64,000 bases of DNA, taken from positions 32,001 to 96,000 of IMG/VR virus record IMGVR_UViG_3300028374_000002. The stretch is one strand, 5' to 3'. Numbering within the stretch: position 1 is the stretch's first letter; every line of letters begins with the position of its first letter. The translations under genes and the position numbers were made by a program. Positions 1,110-30,890 of the stretch are shown piece after piece. The notes below the pieces were generated by a model. It did no database searches. It saw only the letters and a list, made by a program, of their open reading frames with translations, and was not told the DNA's origin. This DNA is from a virus (Duplodnaviria > Caudoviricetes).

Positions 1110-2978
1110 TTATTTGACTTCTTCAAAATCCACGTCCTCTGTATCATCAGATTCATTCTTTGTGGTTTCTTCCTCATTATTATATAATTTTGAACTTATA
1201 TCATTCCAAGATGTATTGAGTTTTTCAACCTTTTCATCTATTGCCTCTGCTTCTTCTGACTTATACGCATCTTTGAGTTCGTTTAAGCTATTGCTAAGGA
1301 CTTCTTTATCATCGCTTGATAACTTATCATCAAACTCTTTTAACTGCTTCTCTGTTTGGAAAATAAGCGTATCTGCTTTATTCATCTTATCGACTTTCTC
1401 TTTCTCTAGGTTATCAGCCTCTGCATTTGCCTCTGCTTCTTCTTTCATTTTGCTTATCTCTTCCTTAGAGAGTTGGGAACCACCTTCAATTCTTATTTTA
1501 TTTTCCTTACCAGATGCCTTATCTTTAGCAGATACTGATAGAACACCATTTGCATCAATATCTAAAGATACTGTAATCTGTGGAACTCCTCTAGGGGCTG
1601 GCAAAATGCTATCTAGATGAAATCTGCCCAAAGATTTATTATCTTTAGCCATTGGTCTTTCACCTTGTAAGACATGTATCTCAACACTTGACTGGTTATC
1701 TGATGCAGTTGAGAAGGTTTCTTCTTTTGATGTTGGTATAGTTGTATTGCCTTCAATTAGTTTTGATAATATCCCACCCATAGTTTCGATACCTAATGAT
1801 AGTGGTATAACATCTAATAAAAGAACATCATCTATACTTCCTGTTAGTACTGCTCCTTGTATAGAAGCACCAAGTGCTACAACTTCATCGGGATTTACCG
1901 ACTTATTAGCCTTCTTATTTAAAAACTTCTCTAGTGCTTCTTGAATAGCTGGTATTCTTGTTGAGCCACCAACTAATATAATCTCATCAATATCTGATGG
2001 ATTTAGTTTAGCATTTTTAAGTGCAGACTTTGCACAATCTATTGTTCTTTTAACTAAATTAGATGTTAGTTGTTCAAATTTAGCCTTTGTCAAGGTTTTA
2101 ACAAAATGAAGTGGTCCAGAATTACTTACCGTTATATATGGAAGATTTATTTCTGTTGTACTTGAAGAAGATAACTCTACCTTAGCCCTTTCCCCCGCAT
2201 CTTTTAGCCTCTGTAAAGCCATTGGATCTTTAGACAAATCAATAGAGTTTTCTTTCTTAAAGTCATCTACCATCCAATCAATAATAGCATCATCAAAGTC
2301 ATCTCCACCTAAGTGTGTATCACCATCAGTTGACTTAACCTCAAATACACCATCTCCAATTTCTAATACCGATACATCATGTGTCCCTCCACCGCAATCA
2401 AACACTAGAATCTTAGAATCTGCATCTTTCTTATCAAAACCATATGCTAATGCGGCTGCCGTTGGTTCATTAATAATTCTCTCAACCTTTAAACCCGCAA
2501 TTTCACCTGCCTCAATTGTTGCAGTTCTTTCAACATCTCCAAAATATGCAGGTACTGTGATTACTGCTCTAGTCACTTCTTGACCTAAAAAGTCTTCTGC
2601 TGTTTTTTTCATTTTCTGTAAAATCATTGCAGAAAGTTCTTGTGGAGTAAAAGTTCTATCACCTATCTTCACACTAGGTACATCATTACCACTGCTTACA
2701 ACATTGTATGGTACTCTTGATACCTCCTCTTTTAATTTTGAAAAGCTTTTACCCATAAATCTCTTTATAGAATAAATAGTATTCTCTGGGTTAGTTACTG
2801 CTTGTCTCTTAGCAGAGTCTCCCACTTTTCTTTCACCATCACTTGTAAAGGCTAGTATAGATGGTGTTGTTCTTTTTCCTTCTGAATTAGCTATGATTTG
2901 TGGTTCACCACCTTCAACAACTGAAACACAGCTATTTGTAGTACCAAGGTCAATTCCGATAATTACGTCTTTTTTCAT
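1110..2978 (-). CDS. dnaK: Hsp70 chaperone DnaK
   Basis: [45 protein letters not shown] and a DVDFEEVK tail. Start moved to MKKDVIIG (2978). Confidence 0.98.
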
Positions 2979-3005
2979 ATATTTATTATTTTTTAGTATA
3001 AATAG

Positions 3006-3020
3006 CCAATAAATATGCCA
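3006..3020 (-). promoter_or_regulatory. Sigma54-like -24/-12 element upstream of dnaK
   Basis: Minus strand TGGCAT-ATTTA-TTGG fits the TGGCAC-N5-TTGC spacing with two mismatches. Confidence 0.35.
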
Positions 3021-3031
3021 TTTGTTTTTAC

Positions 3032-3046
3032 ATGACAAAATGTCAT
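3032..3046. promoter_or_regulatory. Palindromic operator-like site upstream of dnaK
   Basis: ATGACA-AAA-TGTCAT perfect inverted repeat. Confidence 0.45.
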
Positions 3047-3305: not shown

Positions 3306-4565
3306 ATGAATAATTATTTAAAACGATTTAAAACTTTTGAACTAGTTACCTCTCGTGATGAGTTAAATAGCACAAGAGATAGAAGGTCTAGCCTAGTAGA
3401 ACCAGCACTCATGGAACTAGAAGACTATCTAGAATTACTAGGTGCTAACAAGCAACATCCCTCATCTGCGTATCAATTTAACCTATCCGATTCGGAAAAA
3501 TTTGAAAATAAAGACCTTTATGACTATTTGAACACAAAAAAACATGGCTCTGTGTCAGTAAAATACTATATTAGAAATGATAAAGAGCATAACAATTCCT
3601 ATGTTAAAACAAATGATGAAGGTCATGTAGTACGTGATACAAAGGGTATGGCAGTTTATTTAAATAATGATGAATTAAAGGAAAAAGACCTATTAAATAA
3701 ATATGATAAGAATATAGTAGCTATTCATAATGATATTATAGTTGGGTCTGCTCAAGATGAATGGGGTTGTGTCTTAGTGTATGTGGTTGATGAATTTAAA
3801 GGTATAGGGATAGGTCAAGAATTAGTTGAATATTATAGAAAGATATACCCTGATAAGGTATCTGGAGGCACAACAGAGGATGGTTACAAGAACTTAATTA
3901 AATACTATAAGTATCAAGTTAAATTATACCTAAGAAATGGCATATATTCAGACATGGTCAAAAATGGTGATATTTCTAAAGAAAAAGTCAAGAAGATAAC
4001 AGATAGTGTAAAGGGAACGAAATACACCAAATACAAAGATACTATTTATAGTAAATATTTAAATATTGATAGTTATAATAAAGCTTTTGTTTATTCTGAT
4101 GGTGATATTGTATTAATAAATGATAAAATACTAGATTTCTATAATGATTATGATGGAACTGGTAAAGACTTTTATGAAAAATTCGTGTTTGGACACTCAC
4201 ACATTGTAGACAATGAGTATAATCAAAGATTATACTTTATAGAGGGAAAAAGCAATAAAGATATAGAAAGTGTTATAAAGCATTCACTATGCTTTATAAA
4301 TTCATATTATAAAAAAGATTTTGCTACATATTTTGTAACAGAGAATACATCTGACATAGTTAGAAAGTTTTTCAAGAGTATTGATAAAAATACAGATTTT
4401 AAAGTAGAATGGTATGAGAAAGACAGATGTAAAATATACTTTGACAAATGTGACTCTCTGAAAAAAGATTTATTAACAGGAACTAAATGGTTCTATTCTT
4501 TAGATGATAAATATGATGAAATAAAAAACCAATTAATAGAGAACGTTTACTCAACATTTGAATAA
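3306..4565 (+). CDS. GNAT acetyltransferase-domain protein with CTS-like N-terminus
   Basis: VYVVDEFKGIGIGQELVEYY fits GNAT motif A (acetyl-CoA binding); N-terminus MNNYLKRFKTFE. Confidence 0.65.
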   Translation: MNNYLKRFKTFELVTSRDELNSTRDRRSSLVEPALMELEDYLELLGANKQHPSSAYQFNLSDSEKFENKDLYDYLNTKKHGSVSVKYYIRNDKEHNNSYVKTNDEGHVVRDTKGMAVYLNNDELKEKDLLNKYDKNIVAIHNDIIVGSAQDEWGCVLVYVVDEFKGIGIGQELVEYYRKIYPDKVSGGTTEDGYKNLIKYYKYQVKLYLRNGIYSDMVKNGDISKEKVKKITDSVKGTKYTKYKDTIYSKYLNIDSYNKAFVYSDGDIVLINDKILDFYNDYDGTGKDFYEKFVFGHSHIVDNEYNQRLYFIEGKSNKDIESVIKHSLCFINSYYKKDFATYFVTENTSDIVRKFFKSIDKNTDFKVEWYEKDRCKIYFDKCDSLKKDLLTGTKWFYSLDDKYDEIKNQLIENVYSTFE

Positions 4566-4569
4566 TAAT

Positions 4570-4830
4570 TTAGTTATTAATCCATTTAAGTATTCTTCTT
4601 AAAAATATAACCTTGCTATCTCTATATGCATTATTTCGCTTATCAAGCTTATGTCTTGTTTCCCCACTTAATTCACTTTTAACCCAATTGGCTATATCTA
4701 ATCTATTTTTTTGAAATAGTGAAATTTTTTCATTATGAAGTTCCATTATATTACTAACTATCTCATCAACATTTGACTTTTGGTCATTAAGTTTAATCAC
4801 TTGTTCTTTTATATTTTGTTCTATACTCAT
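4570..4830 (-). CDS. Hypothetical protein (86 aa)
   Basis: ORF in series with neighbouring minus-strand genes. Confidence 0.65.
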   Translation of the reverse strand: MSIEQNIKEQVIKLNDQKSNVDEIVSNIMELHNEKISLFQKNRLDIANWVKSELSGETRHKLDKRNNAYRDSKVIFLRRILKWINN

Positions 4831-5858: not shown

Positions 5859-5923
5859 CATCAAATAAATATATTATTAAGTAAAATCATTAGATATATT
5901 TATTTTATATAATTCACCAAGTC

Positions 5924-6118
5924 TCATATATTTCTATAATGGTTATACTTAATTATTATTTCACCATCAACTGAAAACTCATCTAATATTGTTTCTAAAT
6001 TATTATTAAGATATTTTACAGCTTCTATTATATCCTTAAATCCTAAATCTTTATAAACCTCATCATATCTTTTATCGGGTGTCTCTTGATACCATGTTTT
6101 CAATATTATTTCGTACAT
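5924..6118 (-). CDS. Small hypothetical protein (64 aa)
   Basis: Start overlaps the stop of the upstream ORF (TAATG coupling). Confidence 0.65.
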   Translation of the reverse strand: MYEIILKTWYQETPDKRYDEVYKDLGFKDIIEAVKYLNNNLETILDEFSVDGEIIIKYNHYRNI

Positions 6119-6309
6119 TATAAAGTGCTTTTTAATTTATTAATCAAATCATCTATTTCATAAGAATCAACATATTCCCCATTATCGTTATTTTCACGTT
6201 CTGTATCAATGCCATACTCACCCTCTCGATAATTAGTTAAATCGAATCTTTGTAACTTATTTAAAAGTATTATAACACTATGTGTACTATATTCTTTTTT
6301 ATCATCCAT
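6118..6309 (-). CDS. Small hypothetical protein (63 aa)
   Basis: Coupled ORF; likely a distant paralogue of 5609-5815. Confidence 0.65.
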   Translation of the reverse strand: MDDKKEYSTHSVIILLNKLQRFDLTNYREGEYGIDTERENNDNGEYVDSYEIDDLINKLKSTL

Positions 6310-6323
6310 TCTATTAATGTTTA

Positions 6324-6467
6324 TTAATTAATATTTCTACCACATTTTAAACATAGTGATCTATATCCATTTGTCTGTATTATATCATCTTCTGGGTGAT
6401 CACATAATTTTAATTCAGTATGACTCTTGCTATTTTTTTCTTTAATAAATTCTTTAGTCTTATTCAT
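6324..6467 (-). CDS. Small Cys/His protein (47 aa, below the ORF-track cutoff)
   Basis: MNKTKEFIKEKNSKSHTELKLCDHPEDDIIQTNGYRSLCLKCGRNIN; C-x-H...C-x2-C zinc-ribbon-like pattern. Confidence 0.55.
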   Translation of the reverse strand: MNKTKEFIKEKNSKSHTELKLCDHPEDDIIQTNGYRSLCLKCGRNIN

Positions 6468-6608
6468 TTTATTCTATTAACTAGGTTAAAATACATTTCT
6501 ATGGGGTAAATATAGTTTAATTTACCTCACTATGGGTAAATTACATTTTGATAGCATAAAATATACTGTTTATGAATTACCATATGTGCTATACAACAAG
6601 TTATTATA

Positions 6609-6947
6609 TTAATTCTTTAAATAATTAACAATCTTAATTGGATTAATTGACTTATTCTTCGTTACAAATGTTGATAAATCACCCACTTTACGCTTAATAT
6701 CATCAATTATATCACTAGAATTAGCACCATCAGGATACTTATTACTAAACCAATCTTTATCCGATATCATTGTATTAACTCATGTTTGTAAAGTCTCAAT
6801 ACCATACTCATCTAATCCTAGTGACGTTAAATACTTATTCTTTGGCATTGGACTACCATGGTGGTCTCCTTTGAATTGTGAAACAAGATCATAATTTTCA
6901 TTTATGAATAATGTAAAGTTTTTTATCTTGCTCTTTGGTGTTTCCAT
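6609..6947 (-). pseudogene. 112-codon gene interrupted by one in-frame TGA (6780-6782)
   Basis: METPKSKIKNFTLFINE...IETLQT*VNTMISDKDWF...YLKN; the frame is continuous on both sides of the TGA. TTTATATATA lies 20 nt upstream. Confidence 0.55.
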
Positions 6948-7049
6948 CTATCTTATTATTTTACCTTTATATATAAAATAATAAAAATACATAACCCAAT
7001 ACTATTTAATTATATCCCAACTTTATGTATAGCAAGACTAGGTAATAAT

Positions 7050-7292
7050 TTATCTATTTATCTTCCATTTATCTAATTCTTCATGGGTACACATTTTATT
7101 AGTAAGTCTGCAATGTTCCGAAAATCCTAATACCTCATCAGTAGTAAACAAATCTTTATTAGATGAAACGTTTAAATTAATTACTTCTTCTAGACAAACT
7201 ATATATTTTGAAGTTCGTATTGGTATATTAGGTTTGTCCTTATCTGAATACGTTTTCCATTCACTTAAACTTTTCCCTCTCTTTTTGCTCAT
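7050..7292 (-). CDS. Small hypothetical protein (80 aa)
   Basis: ORF in the minus-strand series. Confidence 0.6.
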   Translation of the reverse strand: MSKKRGKSLSEWKTYSDKDKPNIPIRTSKYIVCLEEVINLNVSSNKDLFTTDEVLGFSEHCRLTNKMCTHEELDKWKINR

Positions 7293-7307
7293 GTCTATTA
7301 ACTGTTT

Positions 7308-7634
7308 TTACTTATGTCTATTAACTGTAGTCCAAAAAGTGCTATTACACTTTGTACAATGCTTGGTATGTTCTATACAATGTCGCCCTTTACAATTAGG
7401 ACAAGTTGGTACATTTTTTTCACTTTTAAAGTCATGTATATTTAAGGCATTTCTAACTATCTGTCTCATTTCATTAGGTCCTTCTTTGTGATCTGGTAAC
7501 CCATACTCATAGGAGTCATATATTAAAGCATACTTATCCAAGTCAGAAACTATTTTATCCAATACATTTGGGGATATGCGACTTATGATATCGCCTATAT
7601 GCAATTCTTCACCATTTTCATTAAATATTTTCAT
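7308..7634 (-). CDS. Hypothetical protein with C-terminal zinc ribbon
   Basis: CPNCKGRHCIEHTKHCTKCNSTF. Confidence 0.65.
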   Translation of the reverse strand: MKIFNENGEELHIGDIISRISPNVLDKIVSDLDKYALIYDSYEYGLPDHKEGPNEMRQIVRNALNIHDFKSEKNVPTCPNCKGRHCIEHTKHCTKCNSTFWTTVNRHK

Positions 7635-7654
7635 ATGTATATTTTATAAATAAA

Positions 7655-7861
7655 TTAAAGCGTTTCTCTGTAATCACTTATCAAATCACTTGAATACCAA
7701 GTGCTTACTAAAAGACAATCACCACTTTTTATAAGCGAGTATTTATCTTCATTATTTTTAGCAAATTCTATAAACCCATCATACCTAAATAACTTCCTAT
7801 CATTTCTCTTTGATGATAGTTCAGAATATCTTTTTGATATTTTTTCTATTGAATGTAACAT
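7655..7861 (-). CDS. Small hypothetical protein (68 aa)
   Basis: TAnnTTTG box 25 nt upstream. Confidence 0.6.
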   Translation of the reverse strand: MLHSIEKISKRYSELSSKRNDRKLFRYDGFIEFAKNNEDKYSLIKSGDCLLVSTWYSSDLISDYRETL

Positions 7862-7886
7862 ATTCGTATTTTAGTATTTATAACAA

Positions 7887-7894
7887 CAAACATA
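7887..7894 (-). promoter_or_regulatory. Bacteroidota -7 box (TATGTTTG)
   Basis: Exact TAnnTTTG upstream of 7861. Confidence 0.55.
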
Positions 7895-8170
7895 AATCAT
7901 GCCTTTATATCTCTTTTTAAATCTAAGTACTCATTCACAAAATATAAAGTCTAAAGTCTTTGTTTTTGGTGTTGATTTACTCCCCACACGAACATATTCA
8001 CATATTAAAATAATTTCTTATAAATAAAACTTCATAATTCTAGTATTTATATTTAATTAGTGAAAATATTATTTGCTATTGGGTTTTAGTAAAATTTGTA
8101 TAATCTACTCAATATATATTGTATAAATGATAGTTCTAATTTATTTCCAATAGTCTCATATCTACTTGTT

Positions 8171-8500
8171 TTAGTTATGCTCTATAAATTTTTTCGCTAA
8201 TTTATTGAGTCCAGTATCATCTTCATTTATTTCAAACTCACCTCTAATAAAGTCATAGTTTCTAAGCATATGACCACAATAACTTTCTGAGTTAGCTAGT
8301 TCATTAAGCCAAGTCATATAATCTAAGGGCTTGTCATTATCTTCTATATGTTCTGTTCTTAATAAAATTATTTCCATAGACCCATGTCCACTTAGTAACT
8401 TTTTTGTTAAAGCGAAATCCTTTATAGTTCCTTTAAACTCTTTCTTAGTTCCCCATCCAAATTCGGGAAGTTTTTGAAATAGACTAATTAAGTTTTCCAT
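8171..8500 (-). CDS. Hypothetical protein (109 aa)
   Basis: ORF with normal composition. Confidence 0.7.
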   Translation of the reverse strand: MENLISLFQKLPEFGWGTKKEFKGTIKDFALTKKLLSGHGSMEIILLRTEHIEDNDKPLDYMTWLNELANSESYCGHMLRNYDFIRGEFEINEDDTGLNKLAKKFIEHN

Positions 8501-8610
8501 ACCTATTTTTTGTTATGTATAATAACAAATGTTATTAATATTTCTTTATACATCAAAAGTAATCATTATCTATAAGACATACAAGCTTATGTCTAACTAT
8601 TTATGATATT

Positions 8611-9339: not shown

Positions 9340-9879
9340 TTATAATTTATAATTTTTGAAAATATATCTATGAAACTCATCATAATCCATTGATGGTGCA
9401 ATTTCTCTTATTGGATTAATCTTTATTTCTAAATTTATATTAAGTTCCTTATTCAATATTTTAGCAGCCGAATACCTATGATGACCATCTTCGATATAAA
9501 ACCCCTTCTTGTGCTTATCATCTTGCCAGTAAGAGACATCTATTGGCTCTGATAAATCTATTGTCATTGCCCACTTCTTTTTTGATAAAACACTTTTAGA
9601 TATTTCATATCTTACATTTTCTATATCATCATCCCATCTAATTTTTAAGTATTTTGGTTCTAATGTTTTGATATCACCTTCTGAGAACCCATGTGCTAAC
9701 CTATCTAGTGTTTCGATTGAAATACCACCACCCCTTAATAGTTCTTCATCGGTATCATACTTTGCTAGTTCTTTTTTTAAAGAATCTATAAACTCAGTTT
9801 TTAAATAAACTTTATTGCTTTCTATTTGCTCATTAATATATTCACTTATAGTAGTTGATATAAATTTCCGTGATTTCAT
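9340..9879 (-). CDS. ParB/Srx-like domain protein
   Basis: EPIDVS...GFYIEDGHHRYSAAKIL is the DGHHR signature; CTS-like N-terminus ending ...SEYINE. Confidence 0.65.
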   Translation of the reverse strand: MKSRKFISTTISEYINEQIESNKVYLKTEFIDSLKKELAKYDTDEELLRGGGISIETLDRLAHGFSEGDIKTLEPKYLKIRWDDDIENVRYEISKSVLSKKKWAMTIDLSEPIDVSYWQDDKHKKGFYIEDGHHRYSAAKILNKELNINLEIKINPIREIAPSMDYDEFHRYIFKNYKL

Positions 9880-10341: not shown

Positions 10342-10581
10342 CTATTCTATAATTAACTTGTGTGTAATAGTTTGTTTATTTTTTATCAAAAAATAACCAC
10401 CAATTGCCAAACCACCAATAAGACCTAACCAAATTTGTCCATCAATAGGAGCTGGAACATCTTTTACAGTACCATCACCAGGCAGCATAGGAGGATTTCC
10501 TCCTGCACCAGGTTGGGCTATAAGAGATCCTACTGAAAAAAGTGAGAGGATAAGAATAAAAAGTATTTTTTTAGTTTTCAT
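10342..10581 (-). CDS. PID-CTERM-type small secreted/membrane-anchored protein
   Basis: Signal peptide, Pro/Gly linker, then PIDGQIWLGLIGGLAIGGYFLIKNK (PID + TM + basic tail), directly downstream of a T9SS cargo gene. Confidence 0.7.
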   Translation of the reverse strand: MKTKKILFILILSLFSVGSLIAQPGAGGNPPMLPGDGTVKDVPAPIDGQIWLGLIGGLAIGGYFLIKNKQTITHKLIIE

Positions 10582-10612
10582 AATTTTGTTTTTATTTATA
10601 TAATTAAAAATA

Positions 10613-13600
10613 TTATTCTACAATTAATTTGTGTGTAGTCGTCTGAGTTTGATAGGTCAGTCTAATTAGATAAACACCAGTGTTCAGACTGCTTGTATTT
10701 AGTTTTAATTCTGATGTAGATATACGTTCATTTTGAATCTCTATATTTTGACCTATGACATTAAAAACTGAAACCTTTAATTCGTTGTTGAAATATGGAT
10801 TATGCGTAATATATACAAATCCCGAATTTGAAGGGTTTGGATAAAGTTGTGTACTTGCTATCCTCTCGTCTTGGGATGTACATAAAGTGCTATCTTGTTC
10901 AAACATAATTTTAAATCTATCTGAATTTACAGAACCTGGTATTGAAGAGTCAATATCAAAAGCAATATCGTTTTCACCTTCATTCAATTGATGATCCTCT
11001 TCAGTGTAAGTATCTCTTAAGAATACATCATAATCTGGCATGTTTTCAACTTCAATATTCATGATATAATCTACATCTCTGTAATTGTCAATCCAAAAGC
11101 TAAATACATCATCGTCTTTAGGAAAAGGTCTTTTTTCGATAGCTAAATAATTTCCATCAGATTGAATTCCGATAGTTTCATCATCATTCCAGAATTTTAA
11201 AGCATCATCAGGACCAGCTTCTTCATTGTAAGTAGCATCAAATTTAAATCTTACACCATCCATCAATTCATTATTAGAGATACTGAAGATATTTAAATCT
11301 ATTTTTGAGGTAGGAACGTCTCTGAAAACTTCATTAGTTGAAGTACTGTCTGTTTTAAATTCTTCTTTAAAAGTCAATGAAGGGGCTTCATTTTCTGGAA
11401 CGACACTATTAGTCTGAACAAATACAGATTGATTGACTTGTAAATAGCGAAATTTTTCTGGACTTATATTAGGAATATTAGGGACGTATTCTATAGGTTC
11501 AGAACTTAAATCAACTGTAACATAACCACCTCTATCACCAATATTTGGTTTATAAGCATAGTAAAACCTTTTGCCCAAATGTGTTGAACTATTTTTTAGA
11601 GTTGCTTTCATATCAACTTCAGCTTGGTATGGATTACCAATTAAAGAAAAACCTTCTGGATTAGGATTTAAATCATCATTTATGTTTACATCACCAGTCA
11701 AAATAGTCCCCAAAGATCTCAATCTTGTATCATCGCCTTTAGCTAAATTATTTAAATACATATTTGTGCCTCTATCACCCCTAATCAAAATTCCGTAGGC
11801 TTTACCAGCTTCTAAAGTGTTTGTGTTTGTATTGGAAATTGTTGACCAAATCCCATTTTGTGAATTCCAAGAAAATAGAGATGGATTTCCAGTGCGTGTG
11901 GCATCAAGTCCATTAGCACCAGTTGTACTGCCTGTAATGTGTGTGCCATAACCAGGATTTGGGTCTTTATTTTCTTCGTAATCATTAACTGTATTGTTAA
12001 CCCCTTCTTGCCAGTTTTCATTTATGGAAGTTGTGGTATTTACAGAAGTGGTCATAAATCTAAAAGCTCTATTTCCCATAGGAATGTAACGTTCAATCAT
12101 AACCTCACCAACTATAGTATTATCATTTTCAATTTCACTAATAATAGCTGTGTGAGTAGCATTAGATTTAAAAGTTACTAGGTTATTATCTGGAATAGCA
12201 TGGTCATAATTTGTGATTAAATCACCAGTTATTAAATTTAAACTACCTAACACATTTACATTACCAGATACTAGATTTAAGCTGTGACCGTTATCGATAG
12301 TCAAGCTGTATACTGAAGTAGTACTATCTGTAGAAAAATTCTGAATTCCAGCTCCTTTAAATGCCAAAGTTGAGTTTCCTGGATTATAGGTACCATTATT
12401 TTCAAAATCACCATAAATATCAATTTGAGATTCATTGGTTTGTGAGACACTAGCACCATTAGCGATCAACAAATTTTTAATTTCTACATTCTCTGAAAAA
12501 ATGGGATCATTTGGTGTGATATTAATCACAATATCACTATTTCTATCAGGGAAGCCATTACTCCAATTGTTTATATTTTCAGCATCAGTAGAAACTACAC
12601 CAATCCAAACGGTTGGCTCTGGTGTACAATCTTCTATACCAACTGTTCCGTTAAACACCCAATTTCTGTCTGGGGGAATTTCTGAGAAACTAGGGATTGT
12701 AATTGCACTTTCATTGTTGGCAGTAATTCTACCTCCCCATCCAGCAACTTCTCCATTTAGGATAATTTTATTACAACCTGAGCTGGATTCTATAAGGCCA
12801 GCATGACTTGTTAAGTTATTAAAAATGATTTCTTCACCGAATTGAATTGTGCCCGTAGAATTGATTACAGTACTTCCAATAATTTCAAAACCAGCATTAG
12901 CTGCAATTTTACCACTCCACACTTTTAAATCACAATTGACAATAAAACTGTTTTCGACAATAAGTTCGGCATTGTTAGAATTGCTTTCTAGATCTCCTAA
13001 AATGGTTAAATCACCAGAAATATTAGCGTATGAATCATTTCTGAATTTTTGAGAGAAATTTATCGTTCCAGAAGAATTGATAGAACCATTACTGTTGGCA
13101 AGATTGTCTTCAAAAGTTGTAGAACCTTCATTATTTAAAGTAAATCCATTGCCCATTTGTTCATACGAACCAGAATTAACATTAAGGACACTACCAGTAT
13201 AAACGTTGATAAGACCACTGTCAAAGTTGGTACCGCCACCAACTAAATTTGTTGATGCCCCATCATAGGAATTTAAAGTACCATTTTGTAATTTTACTAC
13301 AGTAGTAAGTGTACCGTAATTATTTATTACAGAATTATTTTTAATTAAAATCGTAGATTGAGTTCCATGATTAAAATTTCCGTAATTATTAAGTGTTAAA
13401 TTATTTCCGCTATTTGGCCAGTTAAGACCTTGTGAGTTAAATGTTACGCCTTCACCAATACATAATGTTCCATTGTTTCCAATATCTTTCCAATTAGCAT
13501 TGTACGTAAAGTTACCACTTAAACATATTGTTTTATTATTCAAATTACCAGTAGGCCAATCATCATCAGAATCATCAATGACATAATCACAATCGCAATC

Positions 13601-13756
13601 CAAATTTATATCTTGAGAATTTGATTTAATATTAATTAAAACATCACTATTTCTATCAGATTTATTGTTGACTAATTGTTGGTCTTGTGCCATTGAGACA
13701 ATGGATGTCATCAAACCAATTATCAAATAAATCATTACTTTTCTAAATTTATTCAT
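10613..13756 (-). CDS. Large secreted protein with T9SS type A (Por) C-terminal sorting domain
   Basis: Signal peptide ending ...SMA-Q; Asn/Gly/Thr-rich beta-solenoid-like body; C-terminal LYPNPS...VSVFNVIGQ...LNTGVYLIRL...THKLIVE. Confidence 0.9.
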   Translation of the reverse strand: MNKFRKVMIYLIIGLMTSIVSMAQDQQLVNNKSDRNSDVLINIKSNSQDINLDCDCDYVIDDSDDDWPTGNLNNKTICLSGNFTYNANWKDIGNNGTLCIGEGVTFNSQGLNWPNSGNNLTLNNYGNFNHGTQSTILIKNNSVINNYGTLTTVVKLQNGTLNSYDGASTNLVGGGTNFDSGLINVYTGSVLNVNSGSYEQMGNGFTLNNEGSTTFEDNLANSNGSINSSGTINFSQKFRNDSYANISGDLTILGDLESNSNNAELIVENSFIVNCDLKVWSGKIAANAGFEIIGSTVINSTGTIQFGEEIIFNNLTSHAGLIESSSGCNKIILNGEVAGWGGRITANNESAITIPSFSEIPPDRNWVFNGTVGIEDCTPEPTVWIGVVSTDAENINNWSNGFPDRNSDIVINITPNDPIFSENVEIKNLLIANGASVSQTNESQIDIYGDFENNGTYNPGNSTLAFKGAGIQNFSTDSTTSVYSLTIDNGHSLNLVSGNVNVLGSLNLITGDLITNYDHAIPDNNLVTFKSNATHTAIISEIENDNTIVGEVMIERYIPMGNRAFRFMTTSVNTTTSINENWQEGVNNTVNDYEENKDPNPGYGTHITGSTTGANGLDATRTGNPSLFSWNSQNGIWSTISNTNTNTLEAGKAYGILIRGDRGTNMYLNNLAKGDDTRLRSLGTILTGDVNINDDLNPNPEGFSLIGNPYQAEVDMKATLKNSSTHLGKRFYYAYKPNIGDRGGYVTVDLSSEPIEYVPNIPNISPEKFRYLQVNQSVFVQTNSVVPENEAPSLTFKEEFKTDSTSTNEVFRDVPTSKIDLNIFSISNNELMDGVRFKFDATYNEEAGPDDALKFWNDDETIGIQSDGNYLAIEKRPFPKDDDVFSFWIDNYRDVDYIMNIEVENMPDYDVFLRDTYTEEDHQLNEGENDIAFDIDSSIPGSVNSDRFKIMFEQDSTLCTSQDERIASTQLYPNPSNSGFVYITHNPYFNNELKVSVFNVIGQNIEIQNERISTSELKLNTSSLNTGVYLIRLTYQTQTTTHKLIVE

Positions 13757-14060: not shown

Positions 14061-14231
14061 CTAACCAAGTAATTGTACACGATAAGTTCTGCCCTTATCA
14101 TCTTCCCAAACACTTCTACAATTAATCATGTTTATTTCATCACCGTGTACATTTCGAACATGTCTTAGGTTCAGGCTTTTTGCCTTCTCTATAGTTATAA
14201 CACAAAATGTTCTTAGATACAAATTAAACAT
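14061..14231 (-). CDS. Possible small protein (56 aa, below cutoff)
   Basis: MFNLYLRTFCVITIEKAKSLNLRHVRNVHGDEINMINCRSVWEDDKGRTYRVQLLG fills the gap and overlaps the upstream stop. Confidence 0.4.
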   Translation of the reverse strand: MFNLYLRTFCVITIEKAKSLNLRHVRNVHGDEINMINCRSVWEDDKGRTYRVQLLG

Positions 14232-14427
14232 ATTGGCTTAATGTATCAATAGCGTTTTCAATTTCCCTTTTACCACTCTCAAGTCCATCAGTTGCTTCAT
14301 CAAAACTCTCTAATAATTCACTAAGCTCACTAAATAAATCACGAAGCTTATCTCTTTCTTTTGAAATTACAATCTTTGATTCTTCAATACCTGATAATAC
14401 CTTGTCTAATTCTTCTTTAGTTACCAT
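14224..14427 (-). CDS. Small coiled-coil protein (67 aa)
   Basis: Heptad-like Leu/Glu pattern. Confidence 0.7.
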   Translation of the reverse strand: MVTKEELDKVLSGIEESKIVISKERDKLRDLFSELSELLESFDEATDGLESGKREIENAIDTLSQYV

Positions 14428-14488
14428 ATCTAGTTAATACTTTATTTTGCCTACTCTATTAAGTTTTCGGCTTCTCTTATTTAGAGTA

Positions 14489-14496
14489 CAAATATA
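14489..14496 (-). promoter_or_regulatory. Bacteroidota -7 box (TATATTTG)
   Basis: Exact match in the intergenic region upstream of 14427. Confidence 0.55.
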
Positions 14497-14578
14497 GCAA
14501 TGTTTTTTGGATTACAGAAAGATTACTATATTTTTTATATTCATTTCTGTGTAATTAGATTCATTTGAAGCATTTGTT

Positions 14579-15799
14579 TTACCATATGTTTTTAAATCCT
14601 CTTTTCATTAACCATTCCCTTGCTAATTCTAACCTCTTAGTCTCATTTATTATAGAACTTACAACTAAGTTATAAGTCTCTCTAGATTCTAAGTATCTCT
14701 TATACTTATCATAAGACTCAAAATTATCTTCGATATCTTCTAAAGACATATCTTTAGCTAAAGAATAGTTTTTCATAGATAATATAAATGGTGCATCTTT
14801 ATTACCTTTGAGGTGATTTACTGCATATTCTTTCAATGATAAGCCCTTATACTTATTATATTCATTTTCTAAATATTCAACTCTGTCTTTTGTATAGGAT
14901 TTTACAACGGAAACCAATCTATCTATTCTATCGATAGATTCTATATCTTCCTCTGGTATCTCTGAGATAAGATCATCTATATCATCATTTAAAATATGTT
15001 TTATAAGGATATTTTCTCTGTATAAATCATCTGTTAAAAGTCCGTGTAAATTTCTATACCATTCAGTTTTAACTTTCAATACTATACCTTCCATTTCAAC
15101 AACCCATCCTTCTTTATTCTCAACAGTCTTGGCTAATTCAATAATATCATCTAATGTATAACATTCAAATTCAGCTTTCTTTATATTAACCCCACTTATA
15201 TCGATATACTCACCAGTCAAGTTGTTACGTAATTTTAGTAGAATAAGTTCTTCTTTCATATATCTTAAAACTATTCTATTAGAAGGTGCTACATATTCAA
15301 ATATAGGAACAATGTCATTGTCTAAACAATCATTTACAAAGTTTTTTATTTCCTCATTATCATTATAAACTCTATTAATCCCATCGGCTTGTGAATTATC
15401 AAATCCTATCTTAGATTTGCCAACTATCTTGCCATTTGGTAGCTTTATAAAGGTGGCTAATGAACCATCTTCTTTATTATTGACATTTATAACATTATAA
15501 TCTTTAACAACATCATATAGAGTCTCTGGAACTTGGTTCAAGTTGAAAAACTTCTTTAGTAGCAAGTATCTTTTAAATAAACTACCATCTTCATTAAATA
15601 CAAATGTTAATCCTCTTAACTCATAGGCACTTATATCTGAATCTTCTCCAAAAGGTTTGGCGAAGTCTGACCATTGTGCTAGTCTATAGTTAAATACAGA
15701 AATATTAAAACCTTCAACATTTACTTTAGTTTCATAAAATGCGGAATCTACTAGATTACACAAATCAACACATTGTTTATAAGTTATTAATTCTGACAT
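14579..15799 (-). CDS. T4 Rnl1-like RNA ligase
   Basis: ELRGLTF, KKFFNLNQ, motif I KEDGSL, IFEY, EGWVV, LKVKTEWY. Start moved to MSELITY (15799). Confidence 0.9.
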   Translation of the reverse strand: MSELITYKQCVDLCNLVDSAFYETKVNVEGFNISVFNYRLAQWSDFAKPFGEDSDISAYELRGLTFVFNEDGSLFKRYLLLKKFFNLNQVPETLYDVVKDYNVINVNNKEDGSLATFIKLPNGKIVGKSKIGFDNSQADGINRVYNDNEEIKNFVNDCLDNDIVPIFEYVAPSNRIVLRYMKEELILLKLRNNLTGEYIDISGVNIKKAEFECYTLDDIIELAKTVENKEGWVVEMEGIVLKVKTEWYRNLHGLLTDDLYRENILIKHILNDDIDDLISEIPEEDIESIDRIDRLVSVVKSYTKDRVEYLENEYNKYKGLSLKEYAVNHLKGNKDAPFILSMKNYSLAKDMSLEDIEDNFESYDKYKRYLESRETYNLVVSSIINETKRLELAREWLMKRGFKNIW

Positions 15800-15820
15800 C
15801 TTTTTATTTTTAGTTGAAAA

Positions 15821-15828
15821 CAAATATA
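15821..15828 (-). promoter_or_regulatory. Bacteroidota -7 box (TATATTTG) for the RNA ligase
   Basis: Exact match 21 nt upstream of the ATG at 15799. Confidence 0.6.
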
Positions 15829-17074: not shown

Positions 17075-18133
17075 TTAGACTATGAAGTCAGATTTTAGTT
17101 CCTTTAGTGTAGCAAGAAATACTTTTATAGCATTATCAACATCATCCTTGTGTGACATCTCAACTGTTGAGTGCATATACTTAAGTGGTGTTGCAATCAT
17201 GGCAGTTTCTATACCTTCTCTAAAAAAAGATAATGTATCATTACCAATAGATCCAATTTCGATTTGTAGTGGTATTTTATTTTCTTTTGCAACATTTCTT
17301 ATCAAAGCATTAATCCTTTTAGAATTCTGGTGTGTATAATGGACACTTGGTCCCTTACCACCTATAACATCACCGTGCTTAGCTTTATTATAAGAAGGTG
17401 TCGTTGTGTTGTGGCAAACATCATGCACTAATGCTAAATTAGGTCTTATTTTCTTGGCCATATGATTTGCACCCTCTAGTCCAACTTCTTCTTGGGAAGA
17501 ATTCACGACATAAAGGTCAAAATCAAGTTGTATTTTTTTACTAACAACAAGCCTTGCTACCTCTGCAATAATAAATCCACCAATCTTGTTATCCACACTT
17601 TTACAAGTGTAGTAATCTCCAATCATAGAGAATTTAGTATCATTTGTAATCAGATTACCCACTTCAACACCACTTTCCAAAACGGCATCCTTATCTTTTA
17701 ATCCTAAGTCAATATAAAGTTCGTGTTGATCAGGGCCATTTTCAACACTATTGTTTCTAGTATGAATAGCAGCCCACCCAAATACACCATTAGAAGTGTT
17801 TCCATTATGGTGGTGTATAATTACTGGTCTTGATGGTGCAATCATATTATCACTACCACCGTTTCTCTTAACTCTTAATAATCCACTATCTTCTATATGT
17901 GAAATCATCCATCCAATTTCATCAACATGTGCCTCTATGACAACTTTTTTTGCATCTGGTTTACCACATCTTATAATGCCATATGAACTATGATAAACAT
18001 CTCTGTGTATGTTTTCTCTGTCTATAAATTTAGACAAATATTCTTCCCATACATCTTGTGCTTCTTTTTCATTACCAGATGGTGAATGTGTGTTTAGATA
18101 ATTCTCTAAAAATCTTTTACTCTTCTTTCTCAT
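17075..18133 (-). CDS. M42 family metallopeptidase (TET aminopeptidase-like)
   Basis: SPSGNE, EAHVDEIG, KSVDNKIG, QEEVGLEGA, DVCH, PLKYMHSTVE. Start moved to the ATG at 18133. Confidence 0.92.
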   Translation of the reverse strand: MRKKSKRFLENYLNTHSPSGNEKEAQDVWEEYLSKFIDRENIHRDVYHSSYGIIRCGKPDAKKVVIEAHVDEIGWMISHIEDSGLLRVKRNGGSDNMIAPSRPVIIHHHNGNTSNGVFGWAAIHTRNNSVENGPDQHELYIDLGLKDKDAVLESGVEVGNLITNDTKFSMIGDYYTCKSVDNKIGGFIIAEVARLVVSKKIQLDFDLYVVNSSQEEVGLEGANHMAKKIRPNLALVHDVCHNTTTPSYNKAKHGDVIGGKGPSVHYTHQNSKRINALIRNVAKENKIPLQIEIGSIGNDTLSFFREGIETAMIATPLKYMHSTVEMSHKDDVDNAIKVFLATLKELKSDFIV

Positions 18134-18155
18134 TTTTGCTTTTTTCAATTTATAT

Positions 18156-18950: not shown

Positions 18951-19865
18951 ATGGAAAATGAAAAGAGTGTGATAATAATAGGTTCTGGACCAGCAGGATA
19001 TACTGCTGCATTGTATGCAGCAAGAGCTGGTTTAAAACCACTAATGATAACTGGGCAGAAAATAGGAGGGCAATTAACTGATACAAATGATGTTGAAAAC
19101 TTCCCAGGATATAGAGAGCCAGTAACTGGTCCAAAAATGATGGAAGATTTTAGATATCAAGCAGAAAAGTTTGGCACTGAAATCATAGAATCCTATATTG
19201 AATATGTTGACACTTCACAATATCCCTACGTTATAAAAGACCATAGAGGTACAGCATATAAAGCTAAGTCAATAATAATATCAACTGGTGCAGAAACCAA
19301 ATGGTTAGGTATTGAATCCGAGACTAAATATAGAGGAATGGGTGTCTCATCATGTGCAACATGTGATGGGTTCTTTTATAAAGACCTTACAGTTATCGTG
19401 ATTGGAGGCGGAGATACCGCTGCCGAGGAAGCCCTTTATCTTTCTAACATATGCAAGTCTGTGATAGTTTTAGTTAGAGGGAATGATATGAAGGCATCCA
19501 AAATAATGCAAAATCGTTTGTTTGATAATGACAAGATAATAGTTCATTTTAATACACATATTGAAGAAATATTAGGTGAGGAAAATAAGGGTGTTACTGG
19601 TGTAAGGATAGGTTCAGGAGATGTGCTTCAGTGTGATGGTGTCTTTGTTGCCATTGGACATAATCCAAGCACAGAAATATTCAAAAATATAATTGATTTA
19701 GACGATGATGGATACATAATAACTAAGCCTAAAAGTACCGAAACTAGTATAGATGGTGTATTTGCATGCGGTGATGTACAAGACAAAAAATATAGACAAG
19801 CTATAACAGCCGCAGGTACTGGATGTATGGCGGCATTAGATGCAGAAAAGTACCTATCAAAATAA
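18951..19865 (+). CDS. trxB: Thioredoxin-disulfide reductase
   Basis: IIGSGPAGYTAA, GGQL, ENFPG, CATCDG, GGGDTAAEEA, GVFACGDV, QAITAAGTG. Confidence 0.97.
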   Translation: MENEKSVIIIGSGPAGYTAALYAARAGLKPLMITGQKIGGQLTDTNDVENFPGYREPVTGPKMMEDFRYQAEKFGTEIIESYIEYVDTSQYPYVIKDHRGTAYKAKSIIISTGAETKWLGIESETKYRGMGVSSCATCDGFFYKDLTVIVIGGGDTAAEEALYLSNICKSVIVLVRGNDMKASKIMQNRLFDNDKIIVHFNTHIEEILGEENKGVTGVRIGSGDVLQCDGVFVAIGHNPSTEIFKNIIDLDDDGYIITKPKSTETSIDGVFACGDVQDKKYRQAITAAGTGCMAALDAEKYLSK

Positions 19866-19881: not shown

Positions 19882-20406
19882 ATGGAAGATATAACTAAAT
19901 TTTTAAGGGATCGGGGAGTCATAGATGATAACTCAATAAAATTAACTATCATAAAAGATGATGGTGGAGAAATTAACCTTAATGAACTCATAGAGGAATA
20001 CTCTTCTTCTTATAATGAAAAATATATTAGGACACTTGCAGAACTAGAAAATTTCAAAAAACGTGTTAGTAAACAGAAAGAACAACTTAAAAAAGAAGTT
20101 CAATTAAAAACTCTTGAATCTGTTCTTGATATACATAATGAACTATCTATTGCAGTTGAAAAGACTATAAGCGAAGAGGCTAGAAGAAACTTCCAATCAA
20201 TGTTAAAAAAACTTGATAATTCCTTTAAAAGTATAGGTCTTGAAAAGGTTAAGAATAAGCAATATGATGTTGATATACATGAGGTTATAAGTATTGTTGA
20301 TTGTGAAAAGCATGGCATATATGAAGTTGTATCAAATGGTTATATAATGAATGATGAGATAATAAGATATCCTAAGATAATCTTGGGTAAATGTGATGGG
20401 GAATAA
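19882..20406 (+). CDS. grpE: Nucleotide exchange factor GrpE (divergent)
   Basis: EKYIRTLAELENFKKR, YDVDIHEVI, GYIMNDEIIRYPKIIL. Confidence 0.85.
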   Translation: MEDITKFLRDRGVIDDNSIKLTIIKDDGGEINLNELIEEYSSSYNEKYIRTLAELENFKKRVSKQKEQLKKEVQLKTLESVLDIHNELSIAVEKTISEEARRNFQSMLKKLDNSFKSIGLEKVKNKQYDVDIHEVISIVDCEKHGIYEVVSNGYIMNDEIIRYPKIILGKCDGE

Positions 20407-20930: not shown

Positions 20931-21257
20931 ATGAGCAAACTAAAAAATTGGAAGCTTAAATCAACTAATATTTCTATTAATGATACTACTAGGAAACGTT
21001 GTGAAACTAATGCTGAAATATACATGAATAAGTTTAAAATAATATTTGAAAACTTATTCGAATCGTCTTATTATTGTGGTGGTAATGTACCTACAAAACA
21101 AGAAGTAGAATCCCATTTAAACTCACTTGGATTTAAACTAACTATAAAAAAAGATGGAACTATGGTTTTGAAGTATAGTAGATACTTTGACATAGTACTT
21201 GATAGCAATACAAATTCAATAATAAGAGCAATTAAATTAAAAAATATTTTAAAATGA
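20931..21257 (+). CDS. Hypothetical protein (108 aa)
   Basis: Operon member; C-terminal IRAIKLKNILK motif. Confidence 0.7.
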   Translation: MSKLKNWKLKSTNISINDTTRKRCETNAEIYMNKFKIIFENLFESSYYCGGNVPTKQEVESHLNSLGFKLTIKKDGTMVLKYSRYFDIVLDSNTNSIIRAIKLKNILK

Positions 21258-22315
21258 AAGATAACTATTACGAAACACTAGGAATTGACAAAAACGCAAG
21301 TCAAGATGAAATAAAGAAAGCATATAGAAAGATGGCTTTAAAATATCATCCTGATAAAAACCCAGATGATATAGAAGCAGAGGGGAATTTCAAAAAAGCA
21401 GCTGAGGCTTATGATACACTAAAGGATGAATCTAAAAGAAATAATTATGACAGATTTGGAACTAGTGGAAACTCTAATACTGGTCAAAGTTCCAGCCAAG
21501 GCCATGGATTTGGTTTTGAAGACATATTCAATCAATTCGGTGATGTTTTTGGGAATTATTCAAAACAAAGATATAACAATTCTACACAACCTAAAAAGAA
21601 AGGTTCTAATCTTAGACTAAAGGTCAGTTTAACAATAGAAGATATACTAAATGGTGTGAATAAAACATTAAAGTATAATAGAAGGAAACATTGTAACACT
21701 TGTTCTGGTAAAGGTGGTAATGAAAGTTCTTCTTGTAATAAATGTAGTGGTAGTGGATATAAAATAATCATACAAGAAACACCATTTGGTAGTATGAGGC
21801 AACAAGTAATATGTTCTGAATGTGATGGAGATGGTACTCAAATAAAAAACAAGTGTAAAGACTGTGGTGGTCTAGGTACTAAAGAAGAATCAGAAAAACT
21901 AGATGTTGACATACCAGCAGGTGTTACATCTGGTATGAAGATAGGTATGAGTGGGTACGGCAACTATGCTAAGAATGGTATAGCGGGGGATTTACATATT
22001 TTTATTGATGAAATAAAAGAAGATTATTTCACCAGGGATAACAATAATATACTTATAAACAAAGAGATAAATGTAATAGATGCTATACTAGGTAATGAAG
22101 TTGAGGTAAAAACACCAAGAGGCACAATTAAATTAAATATAAACCCAGGTACTAAAGATGGACACGTGGCTAGATTCTCTGGTAAAGGAATACCTGATGT
22201 GAACTATGGTATGGGAAATATGTATGTTAGTATAAAAATAAGAATTCCAGCTGATATAAACGGAGAAGAAAGAAAAGTTTTAGAGAAACTAAAAGGCTCT
22301 GTTAATTTTAAATAA
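21254..22315 (+). CDS. dnaJ: Chaperone DnaJ
   Basis: J-domain with HPD, G/F linker, four CxxCxGxG repeats, C-terminal GDLHI...PGT. Confidence 0.97.
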   Translation: MKDNYYETLGIDKNASQDEIKKAYRKMALKYHPDKNPDDIEAEGNFKKAAEAYDTLKDESKRNNYDRFGTSGNSNTGQSSSQGHGFGFEDIFNQFGDVFGNYSKQRYNNSTQPKKKGSNLRLKVSLTIEDILNGVNKTLKYNRRKHCNTCSGKGGNESSSCNKCSGSGYKIIIQETPFGSMRQQVICSECDGDGTQIKNKCKDCGGLGTKEESEKLDVDIPAGVTSGMKIGMSGYGNYAKNGIAGDLHIFIDEIKEDYFTRDNNNILINKEINVIDAILGNEVEVKTPRGTIKLNINPGTKDGHVARFSGKGIPDVNYGMGNMYVSIKIRIPADINGEERKVLEKLKGSVNFK

Positions 22316-22517: not shown

Positions 22518-23153
22518 TTATATAATTGACACTTTAGCCTTTCTTTCGTTTAAAAGTATTTGTAATTCATCTTTTCTAAATGTTTTTAGATAAATATCGT
22601 TCATAGCATCTGTGTTTTGTAAATCCCATTCACTACCATTTGATGTTTGGTATATATATCTCTCATCACCATCAATAATCTCGATACTTCTAGATGTTAA
22701 CTTTTCATAAAACTTTTTAACATCATCATTTACTTTATACATCTTAGCATCTTCCCATCTATCCAAAGAAGAATTCCATGTTTGGAATAACATATAGTCT
22801 GGGTTTTCTAATTCATTAGCATTCATGTCATATATGAACATAAATTTACAGGCTTTATTTAAAAATGTTTGAAAATCATCACTATTCTTAACATCAGACT
22901 TCTTAAGTCCTATGCTAGACAAAGAATTTATAAATTCTATATTATCCGATAGAAATTCAATATCTAAATTATCAACATACACATCTGTTGGTAGGTCTAG
23001 TGTAGTAAATATGTTAACTTCTTCTGCATTTATAGAACTTATTAATGAATCATGCCATATATTTAGTGATTCCATTAAATCATCAAAATGTTCATATTCA
23101 AAATTGAATTGAATTGATTCTTTATAGCTATTGTAGTCCTTGATATATCTCAT
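22518..23153 (-). CDS. Hypothetical protein, CTS-like N-terminus
   Basis: MRYIKDYNSYKES; TAATATATA upstream. Confidence 0.8.
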   Translation of the reverse strand: MRYIKDYNSYKESIQFNFEYEHFDDLMESLNIWHDSLISSINAEEVNIFTTLDLPTDVYVDNLDIEFLSDNIEFINSLSSIGLKKSDVKNSDDFQTFLNKACKFMFIYDMNANELENPDYMLFQTWNSSLDRWEDAKMYKVNDDVKKFYEKLTSRSIEIIDGDERYIYQTSNGSEWDLQNTDAMNDIYLKTFRKDELQILLNERKAKVSII

Positions 23154-29423: not shown

Positions 29424-30155
29424 ATGAAACACATAAAATCTTACAAGATATTCGAGAGTGCTAGTCCTAACTTCCCAACTACAAGAGAGGAAGTTATAGA
29501 AGTTTGTGAAAAATATAAAATAGAAAAATATAGTATTAATGATGATTTAAGTATTGATGTTGATGGTGATGTTTATTTAGATGGTCAAAGCTTAGAATAC
29601 TTACCACTTAAATTTAATTATATAGAGGGTAGCTTTGATTGTCATTTTAATGAATTAAAATCATTAGAGGGTTGTCCAGAAAAAGTGGGTGGAACTTTTA
29701 ACTGTTCTTTTAATCAATTAAAAACATTAGAAGGTAGCCCACGAACAATAAATGGTCGTTTTAGTTGTTCTAATAATGAATTAAAAACATTAGAATTTAG
29801 CCCACAAACAGTAGGTGGTACTTTTCGTTGTATACATAATGAATTAAAGACATTAAAAGGTAGCCCACAAACAGTAGGTGGTAATTTTTCTTGTTCTCAT
29901 AATGAATTAAAAGATTTAGAACATTTCCCAGAAGTAAATAGTAGAATAGACATATTTGAAAACACAGTAAATTTATTAGTGTATACCTTTATTAAAAAAG
30001 CTGATAGCTTTATGATAGAAGACTTTGTAGATTATGAAATAGTCAGAAACAGAGATACTGTTATGCTAGATAGGCTTCAAACTTTTATAAGAGATAACGA
30101 TTTAGAAATGCCTGATTTGGAAGAAATTAAAAAAGAATATAAAATAATAGAATAG
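29424..30155 (+). CDS. LRR-like array paralogue 1 (4 internal repeats)
   Basis: MKHIKSYKIFES cap; LxxLEGxPxxVxGxFxCxxNx repeats; conserved ...YKIIE cap. Confidence 0.95.
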   Translation: MKHIKSYKIFESASPNFPTTREEVIEVCEKYKIEKYSINDDLSIDVDGDVYLDGQSLEYLPLKFNYIEGSFDCHFNELKSLEGCPEKVGGTFNCSFNQLKTLEGSPRTINGRFSCSNNELKTLEFSPQTVGGTFRCIHNELKTLKGSPQTVGGNFSCSHNELKDLEHFPEVNSRIDIFENTVNLLVYTFIKKADSFMIEDFVDYEIVRNRDTVMLDRLQTFIRDNDLEMPDLEEIKKEYKIIE

Positions 30156-30156
30156 A

Positions 30157-30888: not shown

Positions 30889-30890
30889 AC

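Follow-up and report, generated by a model that had tools for sequence, protein, structure and literature searches.

Phage genes for type IX secretion system (T9SS) cargo have been reported before. 'Cryophage', an uncultured Bacteroidota phage from a cold habitat, carries genes for proteins that bear a sorting domain of type A (an endoglucanase, a GH39 protein and a PA14 protein), which vary between phage variants and are presumed to be exported by the T9SS of the host (Bellas et al., 2020, Nat Commun, PMC7468147). On the bacterial side, genomic island 2 of Psychroflexus torquis holds a putative ice-binding/adhesin cluster next to proteorhodopsin, and no gene of definite phage origin was found in the P. 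torquis genome (Feng et al., 2014, PMC3914696). Here we analyzed a 64,000-nt stretch of Caudoviricetes DNA (positions 32,001 to 96,000 of IMG/VR record IMGVR_UViG_3300028374_000002; hereafter the window, numbered from its first letter), in which a large gene for a T9SS cargo protein is followed by a small gene for a membrane peptide. We judge the chances somewhat better than even that the two are a host-derived accessory gene block in a huge Psychroflexus phage, and that the cargo is made, exported by the host T9SS and displayed at the surface.

Given the Cryophage precedent, a phage-encoded T9SS cargo is not a new idea, and the locus is a further example of the reported kind. Like Cryophage, it belongs to an uncultured Bacteroidota phage from a cold habitat, it encodes a type A sorting domain on a cargo that varies between phage variants, and use of the host T9SS is presumed. 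Unlike the Cryophage cargoes, the protein described here is apparently a non-enzymatic, adhesin-like beta-helix; its donor locus is identifiable, with exact identity over as many as 605 nt; its variation can be traced to host alleles; and the phage is much larger, at an estimated several hundred kb. What is distinctive is thus the identifiable donor island, the near-identity to host alleles, the traceable recombination with the host and the residence in a huge phage.

Both open reading frames (ORFs) lie on the minus strand where the preliminary description of this DNA had placed them, free of internal stops, and the 1047-residue cargo is intact. Their parts are as follows.

10342..10581, minus strand: small gene, 79 aa, ORF without internal stop
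10342..10374, minus strand: small-gene tail QTITHKLIIE plus stop, not in host homologs
10379..10465, minus strand: small-gene core, matching host copies at no less than 90% identity; site of the crossover in the hybrid contigs L023 and L024
10582..10612, minus strand: 31-nt spacer between cargo and small gene, in which no terminator-like site was found
10613..13756, minus strand: cargo gene, 1047 aa, intact (ORF, Pfam/NCBIfam), and intact in 11 phage-context copies
10616..10846, minus strand: type A C-terminal sorting domain (CTD), residues 971-1047 (PF18962, TIGR04183, fold)
10847..12634, minus strand: stalk (residues 375-970), comprising another short beta-helix and, after it, beta-sandwich domains
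12329..12933, minus strand: 605-nt stretch identical to the chromosomal ortholog on host contig L025
12635..13687, minus strand: head, residues 24-374, modelled as an adhesin-like right-handed parallel beta-helix with conserved Cys and NYG turns
13688..13756, minus strand: signal peptide, residues 1-23, read from the sequence by eye

The sorting domain was recognized by two models. PF18962 (Por_Secre_tail) matched residues 971-1046 over the full model length (E 1.7e-13; 51.1 bits, cut-off 27), and the type A model TIGR04183 scored 45.5 bits (cut-off 23), whereas the T9SS type C model reached 18.1 bits, under its cut-off of 40. The modelled domain superposed on the CTD of Flavobacterium johnsoniae NucA solved in the T9SS complex (8glk_D; Z 9.8, root-mean-square deviation (rmsd) 1.7 Å over 70 residues) and on those of mirolase (8qb1, Z 9.7) and 5m11 (Z 9.3); the fold also matches the CTDs of PorZ and FspA. 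Compared with NucA (8glk) and FspA (8glj), the CTD is similar in fold (rmsd 1.7-2.5 Å) and identical at 20-27% of residues, with a hidden Markov model score over the cut-off, whereas the passenger domains are unrelated. The canonical type A CTD of the preliminary description was therefore borne out; it is the only one encoded in the whole 201-kb virus record. SprA (419 bits), PorU (1315 bits) and PorV (522 bits) were all detected in Psychroflexus sp. MES1-P1E, and none of the three in the 201-kb phage fragment, so the cargo would rely on the machine of its host. The presumed producing cell, a Psychroflexus, therefore appears to possess a T9SS.

At the N terminus, a basic end, a 14-residue hydrophobic core and SMA followed by Gln at +1 read by eye as a Sec signal peptide, in line with the preliminary description and with probable export to the periplasm. 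Between signal peptide and CTD, the beta-solenoid-like body proposed earlier was recovered by AlphaFold: the head was modelled as a right-handed parallel beta-helix with a mean pLDDT of 86.2, and the stalk and CTD with a pLDDT of 85. The best matches of the head in VIA-align structural comparisons were Vag8 (Z 21.2), EtpA (19.8), UpaB (19.1), HMW1 (19.0) and pertactin (18.2), followed at lower scores by tailspikes and lyases (Z 12-17), among which falls the value for the Marinomonas ice-binding adhesin domain 3p4g (Z 15.5). A Foldseek search of the PDB with the head returned nothing significant (best E 0.18). Like the head, passengers of type V and two-partner adhesins are right-handed beta-helices (Z 18-21, rmsd 2.9-3.9 Å over 253-302 residues), but the two have no common sequence family (8-16% identity), the cargo lacks a beta-barrel or two-partner secretion domain and carries a CTD for T9SS export instead, and the shared fold does not show a shared ligand.

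No enzyme family was found in the cargo, nor any of the Autotransporter, Pertactin and PATR Pfam families. DUF3494 (PF11999), a domain present in paralogs that have the cargo's stalk, gave no match at E<=0.1, and the cargo is not counted among the DUF3494 ice-binding proteins. The head family is narrow (74 representatives at E<=1e-3 among 1.84 billion proteins), and in the relatives checked any Pfam match was to the CTD only. The stalk, in contrast to the head, has a shape found again ahead of the CTD in many cargo clusters of Bacteroidota whose heads are unrelated (ice-binding, esterase, immunoglobulin-like, leucine-rich repeat); it is a module common to many Flavobacteriaceae T9SS cargoes that differ in their heads. 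The description that best fits the cargo on these models is that of an adhesin-like, non-enzymatic protein of the cell surface.

The cargo family extends across the Flavobacteriaceae, and its closest members are all from Psychroflexus. Full-length relatives in P. aestuariivivens and related metagenome-assembled genomes (MAGs) are 67-71% identical and occupy ordinary chromosomal contexts. The stalk and CTD share ~80% identity with the 'secreted ice-binding cell surface proteins' of P. torquis, and 78-83% with four paralogs that lie in tandem (177-192 kb) in a complete Psychroflexus genome of 4.3 Mb; at the DNA level, the stalk is 87.7% identical to a host ice-binding cargo gene. The closest host copy lies on contig L025 (GC content 0.348), with genes for an ice-binding protein, a proteorhodopsin fragment and BrxC/YtxJ as neighbours. 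This layout matches the proteorhodopsin-edged island of P. torquis, whose cluster is of the same protein family; the phage cargo differs from the island proteins in lacking DUF3494, in its other beta-helix head and in being virus-borne (Feng et al., 2014, PMC3914696). Phage cargo and L025 copy share 93% of their DNA sequence, and codons 92-434 are 98.5-100% identical; the longest exact match is 605 nt, compared with 623 nt between the two phage strains. Homology to this host ortholog begins at 13620 (residue 46) and runs to the stop codon, while residues 1-45, including the signal peptide, are phage-specific.

A tblastn search of 50,697 GenBank phage records with the cargo gave no match, and PHROGs had no entry that covered the cargo or the small protein, nor any for most neighbouring genes. 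The two genes are also less AT-rich than their flanks, as noted in the preliminary description (GC 0.321 in the cargo gene and 0.342 in the small gene; 0.285 in the window and 0.288 in the record as a whole). Host-like GC, the many host paralogs, the lack of a PHROG family and the lack of a homolog among the phage records together point to transfer from host to phage, and by the relatives described above the donor genus is Psychroflexus. Of the captured Flavobacteriaceae cassette that had been proposed, a type A CTD cargo in a genuine phage, with Psychroflexus as donor, is thus retained; the notion that its two genes were taken up as an ancestral pair is not, as set out below.

The cargo gene appears to have gone on exchanging sequence with host copies. 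Divergence between the two phage strains is patchy, with stretches of 100% identity alternating with patches of 80-91% inside the cargo gene; flanking genes are mostly 99-100% identical, although 90-91% patches also occur in the RNA-ligase region (14100-15300). Across phage copies the cargo is 92.5-100% identical pairwise and varies more than the core genome does between phage variants. At 98 of the 107 sites that differ between the strains, the L025 host gene matches one strain or the other; most of the variation therefore appears to stem from recombination with host genes and not from mutation. Head and stalk trees disagree, the head grouping with the P. aestuariivivens type and the stalk nested among ice-binding paralogs. 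Host copies at least 90% identical coexist with the phage in the same runs, as is evident from the depth, which rises over the gene, and from loose ends at 10379, 10465, 10614 and 13620, and many phage contigs break inside the cargo gene. No internal stop was present in any of the phage-context copies (11/11). Among the host paralogs themselves, stalks that carry very different heads (P0003/P0015 and P0004/P0016) cluster by host genome in the tree, which suggests concerted evolution and gene conversion between paralogs.

The preliminary description had called the small protein a PID-CTERM partner of the cargo. It consists of a signal peptide (..LIA, then Gln), a variable Pro/Gly linker, a PIDG motif, a transmembrane (TM) helix, a basic stretch and a phage-specific tail; PAPIDG is followed by QIWLGLIGGLAIGGYF and then by K-N-K, where host forms have K-K-R. 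The family as a whole shows a signal peptide, a variable linker of 15-35 residues rich in Pro and Gly, and an invariant PAPIDGQIW with a Gly-rich helix, and host forms end in KKRAIKID; the mature part comprises only ~20-35 variable residues. Motif, helix and C-terminal basic cluster are all present as in PID-CTERM proteins, and judged on these elements the likeness to exosortase-type and archaeosortase-type signals is real; an exosortase, XrtF (TIGR04128, 250 bits), is moreover encoded in a host genome. In contrast, the PID_CTERM model NF046080 scored 14.7 bits with the phage protein (cut-off 26) and, across the phage protein and 18 relatives, gave 13 weak matches (best E 0.021), with 0/19 above the cut-off; residues also extend past the basic cluster, eight in host forms and 13 in the phage form. 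A literature search for PID-CTERM found no paper. The signal peptide, PIDG motif, TM helix and Lys-rich stretch described earlier are therefore there, and the PID_CTERM assignment itself is below threshold.

A profile search detected the small gene in 23/41 Psychroflexus species genomes. The exact 33-nt core had no match in GTDB species genomes or IMG/VR, and a degenerate pattern of the core at the peptide level matched only Psychroflexus sp. MES1-P1E, twice. That genome has two tandem copies ~1.5 kb apart (22605-22826 and 24116-24364 of contig C201), which have different linkers, and one of which has no Gln behind its signal peptide. The idea that the core is constrained at the nucleotide level, as an att site or RNA element would be, was considered and rejected: between lineages 1-6 of ~19 codons differ synonymously, a level explained by strong protein conservation and close kinship.

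In hosts the small gene occupies a conserved locus of its own, preceded by a YdjM gene; an MptA_B-type glycosyltransferase gene converges on it (14-nt overlap), and beyond that gene GT2 genes follow. Five host contigs and the complete genome all place it beside glycosyltransferase genes and far from cargo genes, in the complete 4.3-Mb genome 2.4 Mb from the cargo cluster, and no small gene lies downstream of host full-length cargo orthologs. The two genes are hence not an ancestral pair, and the partnership proposed in the preliminary description falls with this separation and with the failure of every family member to reach the PID_CTERM cut-off. By its sequence and host location, the small gene was derived from the host separately from the cargo gene, and it encodes a putative single-pass membrane peptide with an exosortase-like C-terminal signal. 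Only one host contig, from MAG GCA_041689385.1, has such a pair adjacent, with an ice-binding cargo gene upstream of the small gene. On the same contig, a 113-residue remnant of a phage-type head (522-863) lies upstream of the ice-binding gene, and a stalk fragment 90% identical to window positions 11648-12032 lies downstream of the small gene (4278-4676), which indicates either a tandem series of paralogs in decay or an assembly that is tangled.

In the phage, the small protein ends in KNKQTITHKLIIE, and its last ten residues do not occur in host forms. The corresponding codons match the last codons of the cargo CTD (10613-10642) at 27/30 nt; we therefore read the tail as a relic at a recombination joint, where the small gene was probably fused to what was left of the 3' end of a CTD gene. 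Two short contigs (2.0 and 2.2 kb) from one sample, ENA assembly ERZ27317290, are reciprocal hybrids that cross within a 38-nt identical stretch of the core. In L024, the phage cargo and a small-gene 5' half of phage type lead into a 3' half of host type and the MptA_B glycosyltransferase gene of the host; in L023, intergenic DNA and a small-gene 5' half, both of the host, lead into the tail and ORFs of the phage. The two could be genuine recombinants or cointegrates, or else cross-overs made in assembly.

Phage genes flank the cargo gene on both sides in the virus record and in nine other contigs. The record (201 kb) has an estimated CheckV completeness of ~28%, and its DnaK is 72-74% identical to that of uncultured phages of 630-640 kb; we estimate a huge phage of several hundred kb. 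A literature search turned up no earlier account of such a phage in connection with Psychroflexus. As in the preliminary description, the pair is embedded among small phage ORFs; its neighbours include a T4-type RNA ligase, DnaK, DnaJ and GrpE, and it lies on the same strand as the phage genes around it, with only short spacers between. The independent contig L004 (65 kb) aligns in blocks of 97.6-98.9% DNA identity and repeats the order of the record (RNA ligase, small ORFs, cargo, 79-aa gene, small ORFs, DnaK), as do eight further contigs from other samples (L015-L022). The region is present in 23 sequencing runs from lake-water and salt-lake metagenomes, and phage-context samples date from 2017 and 2019. 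Single contigs bridge the small gene and the CTD end in three independent runs, and both junctions of the block are spanned by L004, by L015 and by a 26-kb contig of X1, the last of which is not independent, since X1 is a possible source of this DNA.

We favor, at somewhat better than even, the following sequence of events for this host-derived block. The large gene would be a recent copy from a host family of adhesin and ice-binding surface proteins with variable heads, a shared stalk and a type A CTD, located in a genomic island beside proteorhodopsin; the small gene would have recombined in next to the CTD end, where its odd tail marks the joint. The cargo would be made during infection and exported through Sec, its CTD would be recognized by the host T9SS (SprA translocon, PorV shuttle, PorU sortase), and the beta-helix head would end up on the surface of the infected cell or be shed from it, with an effect on what the cell adheres to or on what can get to its surface. 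The roles suggested earlier, namely receptor masking, exclusion and adhesion, are conjectural. Several points weigh against this account. No transcription or protein evidence for the cargo was found, and no RNA data were among the 24 listed runs; the host was assigned from sequence identity and co-occurrence and not from a CRISPR spacer or isolate; and the head has no identified ligand or catalytic site and a fold also seen in tailspikes and lyases. The intact frame of all phage-context copies and the ratio of nonsynonymous to synonymous change (dN/dS; 0.15 against a host ortholog and 0.48 between phage strains) speak for maintenance of the gene, but the second value comes from ~108 changes that are mostly recombination imports, and the capture is so recent that the intact frame and the low dN/dS against the host say little about selection in the phage. 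A bolder proposal, which we advance only tentatively, is that the phage continually swaps alleles of the surface-adhesin and ice-binding island with Psychroflexus, acting as shuttle and diversifier, and may transiently recombine into the chromosome at the small-gene core. It is somewhat unlikely, in our view, that the block is instead a neutral passenger, a by-product of frequent homologous recombination that is carried for a while at no benefit to the phage. The 605-nt exact match makes the exchange very recent, strain differences are mostly host alleles and neighbouring gene content varies (a ParB-like ORF at 9340-9879 is missing in L004), as a passenger would predict, and a distant relative (RNA ligase 40% identical) has no CTD gene in its 44-kb fragment. 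A passenger would not, however, be expected to be intact in every phage contig seen, in samples of 2017 and 2019 alike, to have its own signal peptide and N terminus, unlike the host ortholog, or to share the orientation and short spacers of its phage neighbours.

T9SS and gliding mutants of Flavobacterium are often phage-resistant. The host ortholog or a stalk-sharing paralog could be the receptor, and the phage copy could mask or replace it or soak up competing virions. The close tracking of host alleles by the cargo gene fits such a superinfection-exclusion or decoy role indirectly, and the authors of the Cryophage study made a similar suggestion for their variable T9SS cargo (PMC7468147); yet nothing speaks to the identity of the receptor, and no virion protein of matching variability was identified, so that we regard this role as improbable. 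Slightly more improbable is integration, in which all or part of the phage enters the host chromosome by recombination at the small-gene core and L024 and L023 are the two junctions. The reciprocity of these contigs and their crossing within 38 identical nt in one sample are what integration would leave. However, each is also readable as a host or phage variant from ordinary gene exchange, an assembly cross-over is possible because both are short and cross at a repeat of two abundant genomes of the same sample, and contig-level data gave host and phage forms with no bridging joint. Neither tyrosine (PF00589) nor serine (PF00239) integrases were detected in the 201 kb, which is ~28% of the genome, so an integrase elsewhere in the phage is not excluded. 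We further doubt strongly that the pair is a functional two-gene unit in which the small protein, as PID-CTERM/exosortase substrate or anchor, works with the cargo. The pair is adjacent, with its 31-nt spacer, in all phage copies, a cargo gene lies upstream of the small gene on one host MAG contig too, and XrtF and the PIDG-helix-basic architecture are at hand; against these stand the NF046080 scores, which reach the cut-off in 0/19 members, the distance between the genes in the host contigs and the complete genome, and the host full-length orthologs with no small gene downstream. A chimera of phage and host DNA, which the preliminary description had named as fatal to its claim, we consider practically negligible. 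Host paralogs at least 90% identical in the same samples and contigs that break in the gene are the setting in which chimeras form, but the gene order on either side recurs in at least ten independent assemblies, both junctions are covered by single contigs, and the phage copy is unique in its 5' end and in the tail of its small gene; the assemblies and bridging contigs together exclude it.

Phage genes with a type IX export tag of the host suggest that Bacteroidota phages re-dress the surface of the infected cell. The present case is unusually tractable, with near-identical donor and recipient copies in hand and a cultivable host genus, and its cargo family is tied to life in ice and brine. 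A huge phage that exchanges DNA with a host genomic island in near real time also bears on how such islands are built. Should the shuttle proposal prove true, it would provide direct evidence for the phage-driven build-up of islands for adaptation to sea ice and cold brine, which has so far been only hypothesized (Feng et al., 2014, PMC3914696).

Several observations concern the surroundings of the block. The RNA ligase, a T4 Rnl1-type enzyme with both domains (PF09511 and PF20819), is encoded immediately upstream of the block region at 14579-15823 (minus strand). Through it the nearest phage relative was found (40% identity), whose 44-kb fragment is too little sequence for the capture to be dated from that relative. 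The ParB-like ORF (179 aa, 9340-9879, minus strand) matched phrog_1033 at E 1.9e-5; since it is missing from the sister strain L004, and since 5910-8536 also differs between record and L004, gene content beside the block is flexible. A scan for sigma-70 promoters and terminators was uninformative (32 sites against 26 expected). A full DnaK/GrpE/DnaJ chaperone set, a thioredoxin-reductase-like flavoprotein and an M42-type peptidase, identified from Pfam families of near-identical L004 genes and from the DnaK match, lie at 1110-3038 (minus), 19882-20406 (plus), 21254-22315 (plus), 18951-19865 (plus) and 17075-18148 (minus).

Farther away, ten tandem ORFs of ~200-350 residues, many of them exactly 243 residues long, occupy 29424-36832. 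An ORF of 1932 residues (45500-51298, plus strand) has CBM_5_12, near residue 1800, as its sole Pfam match, and one of 962 residues with no family (53562-56450, minus strand) lies in the GC-richest stretch of the window (0.36). Either could be another host-derived gene or a virion gene.

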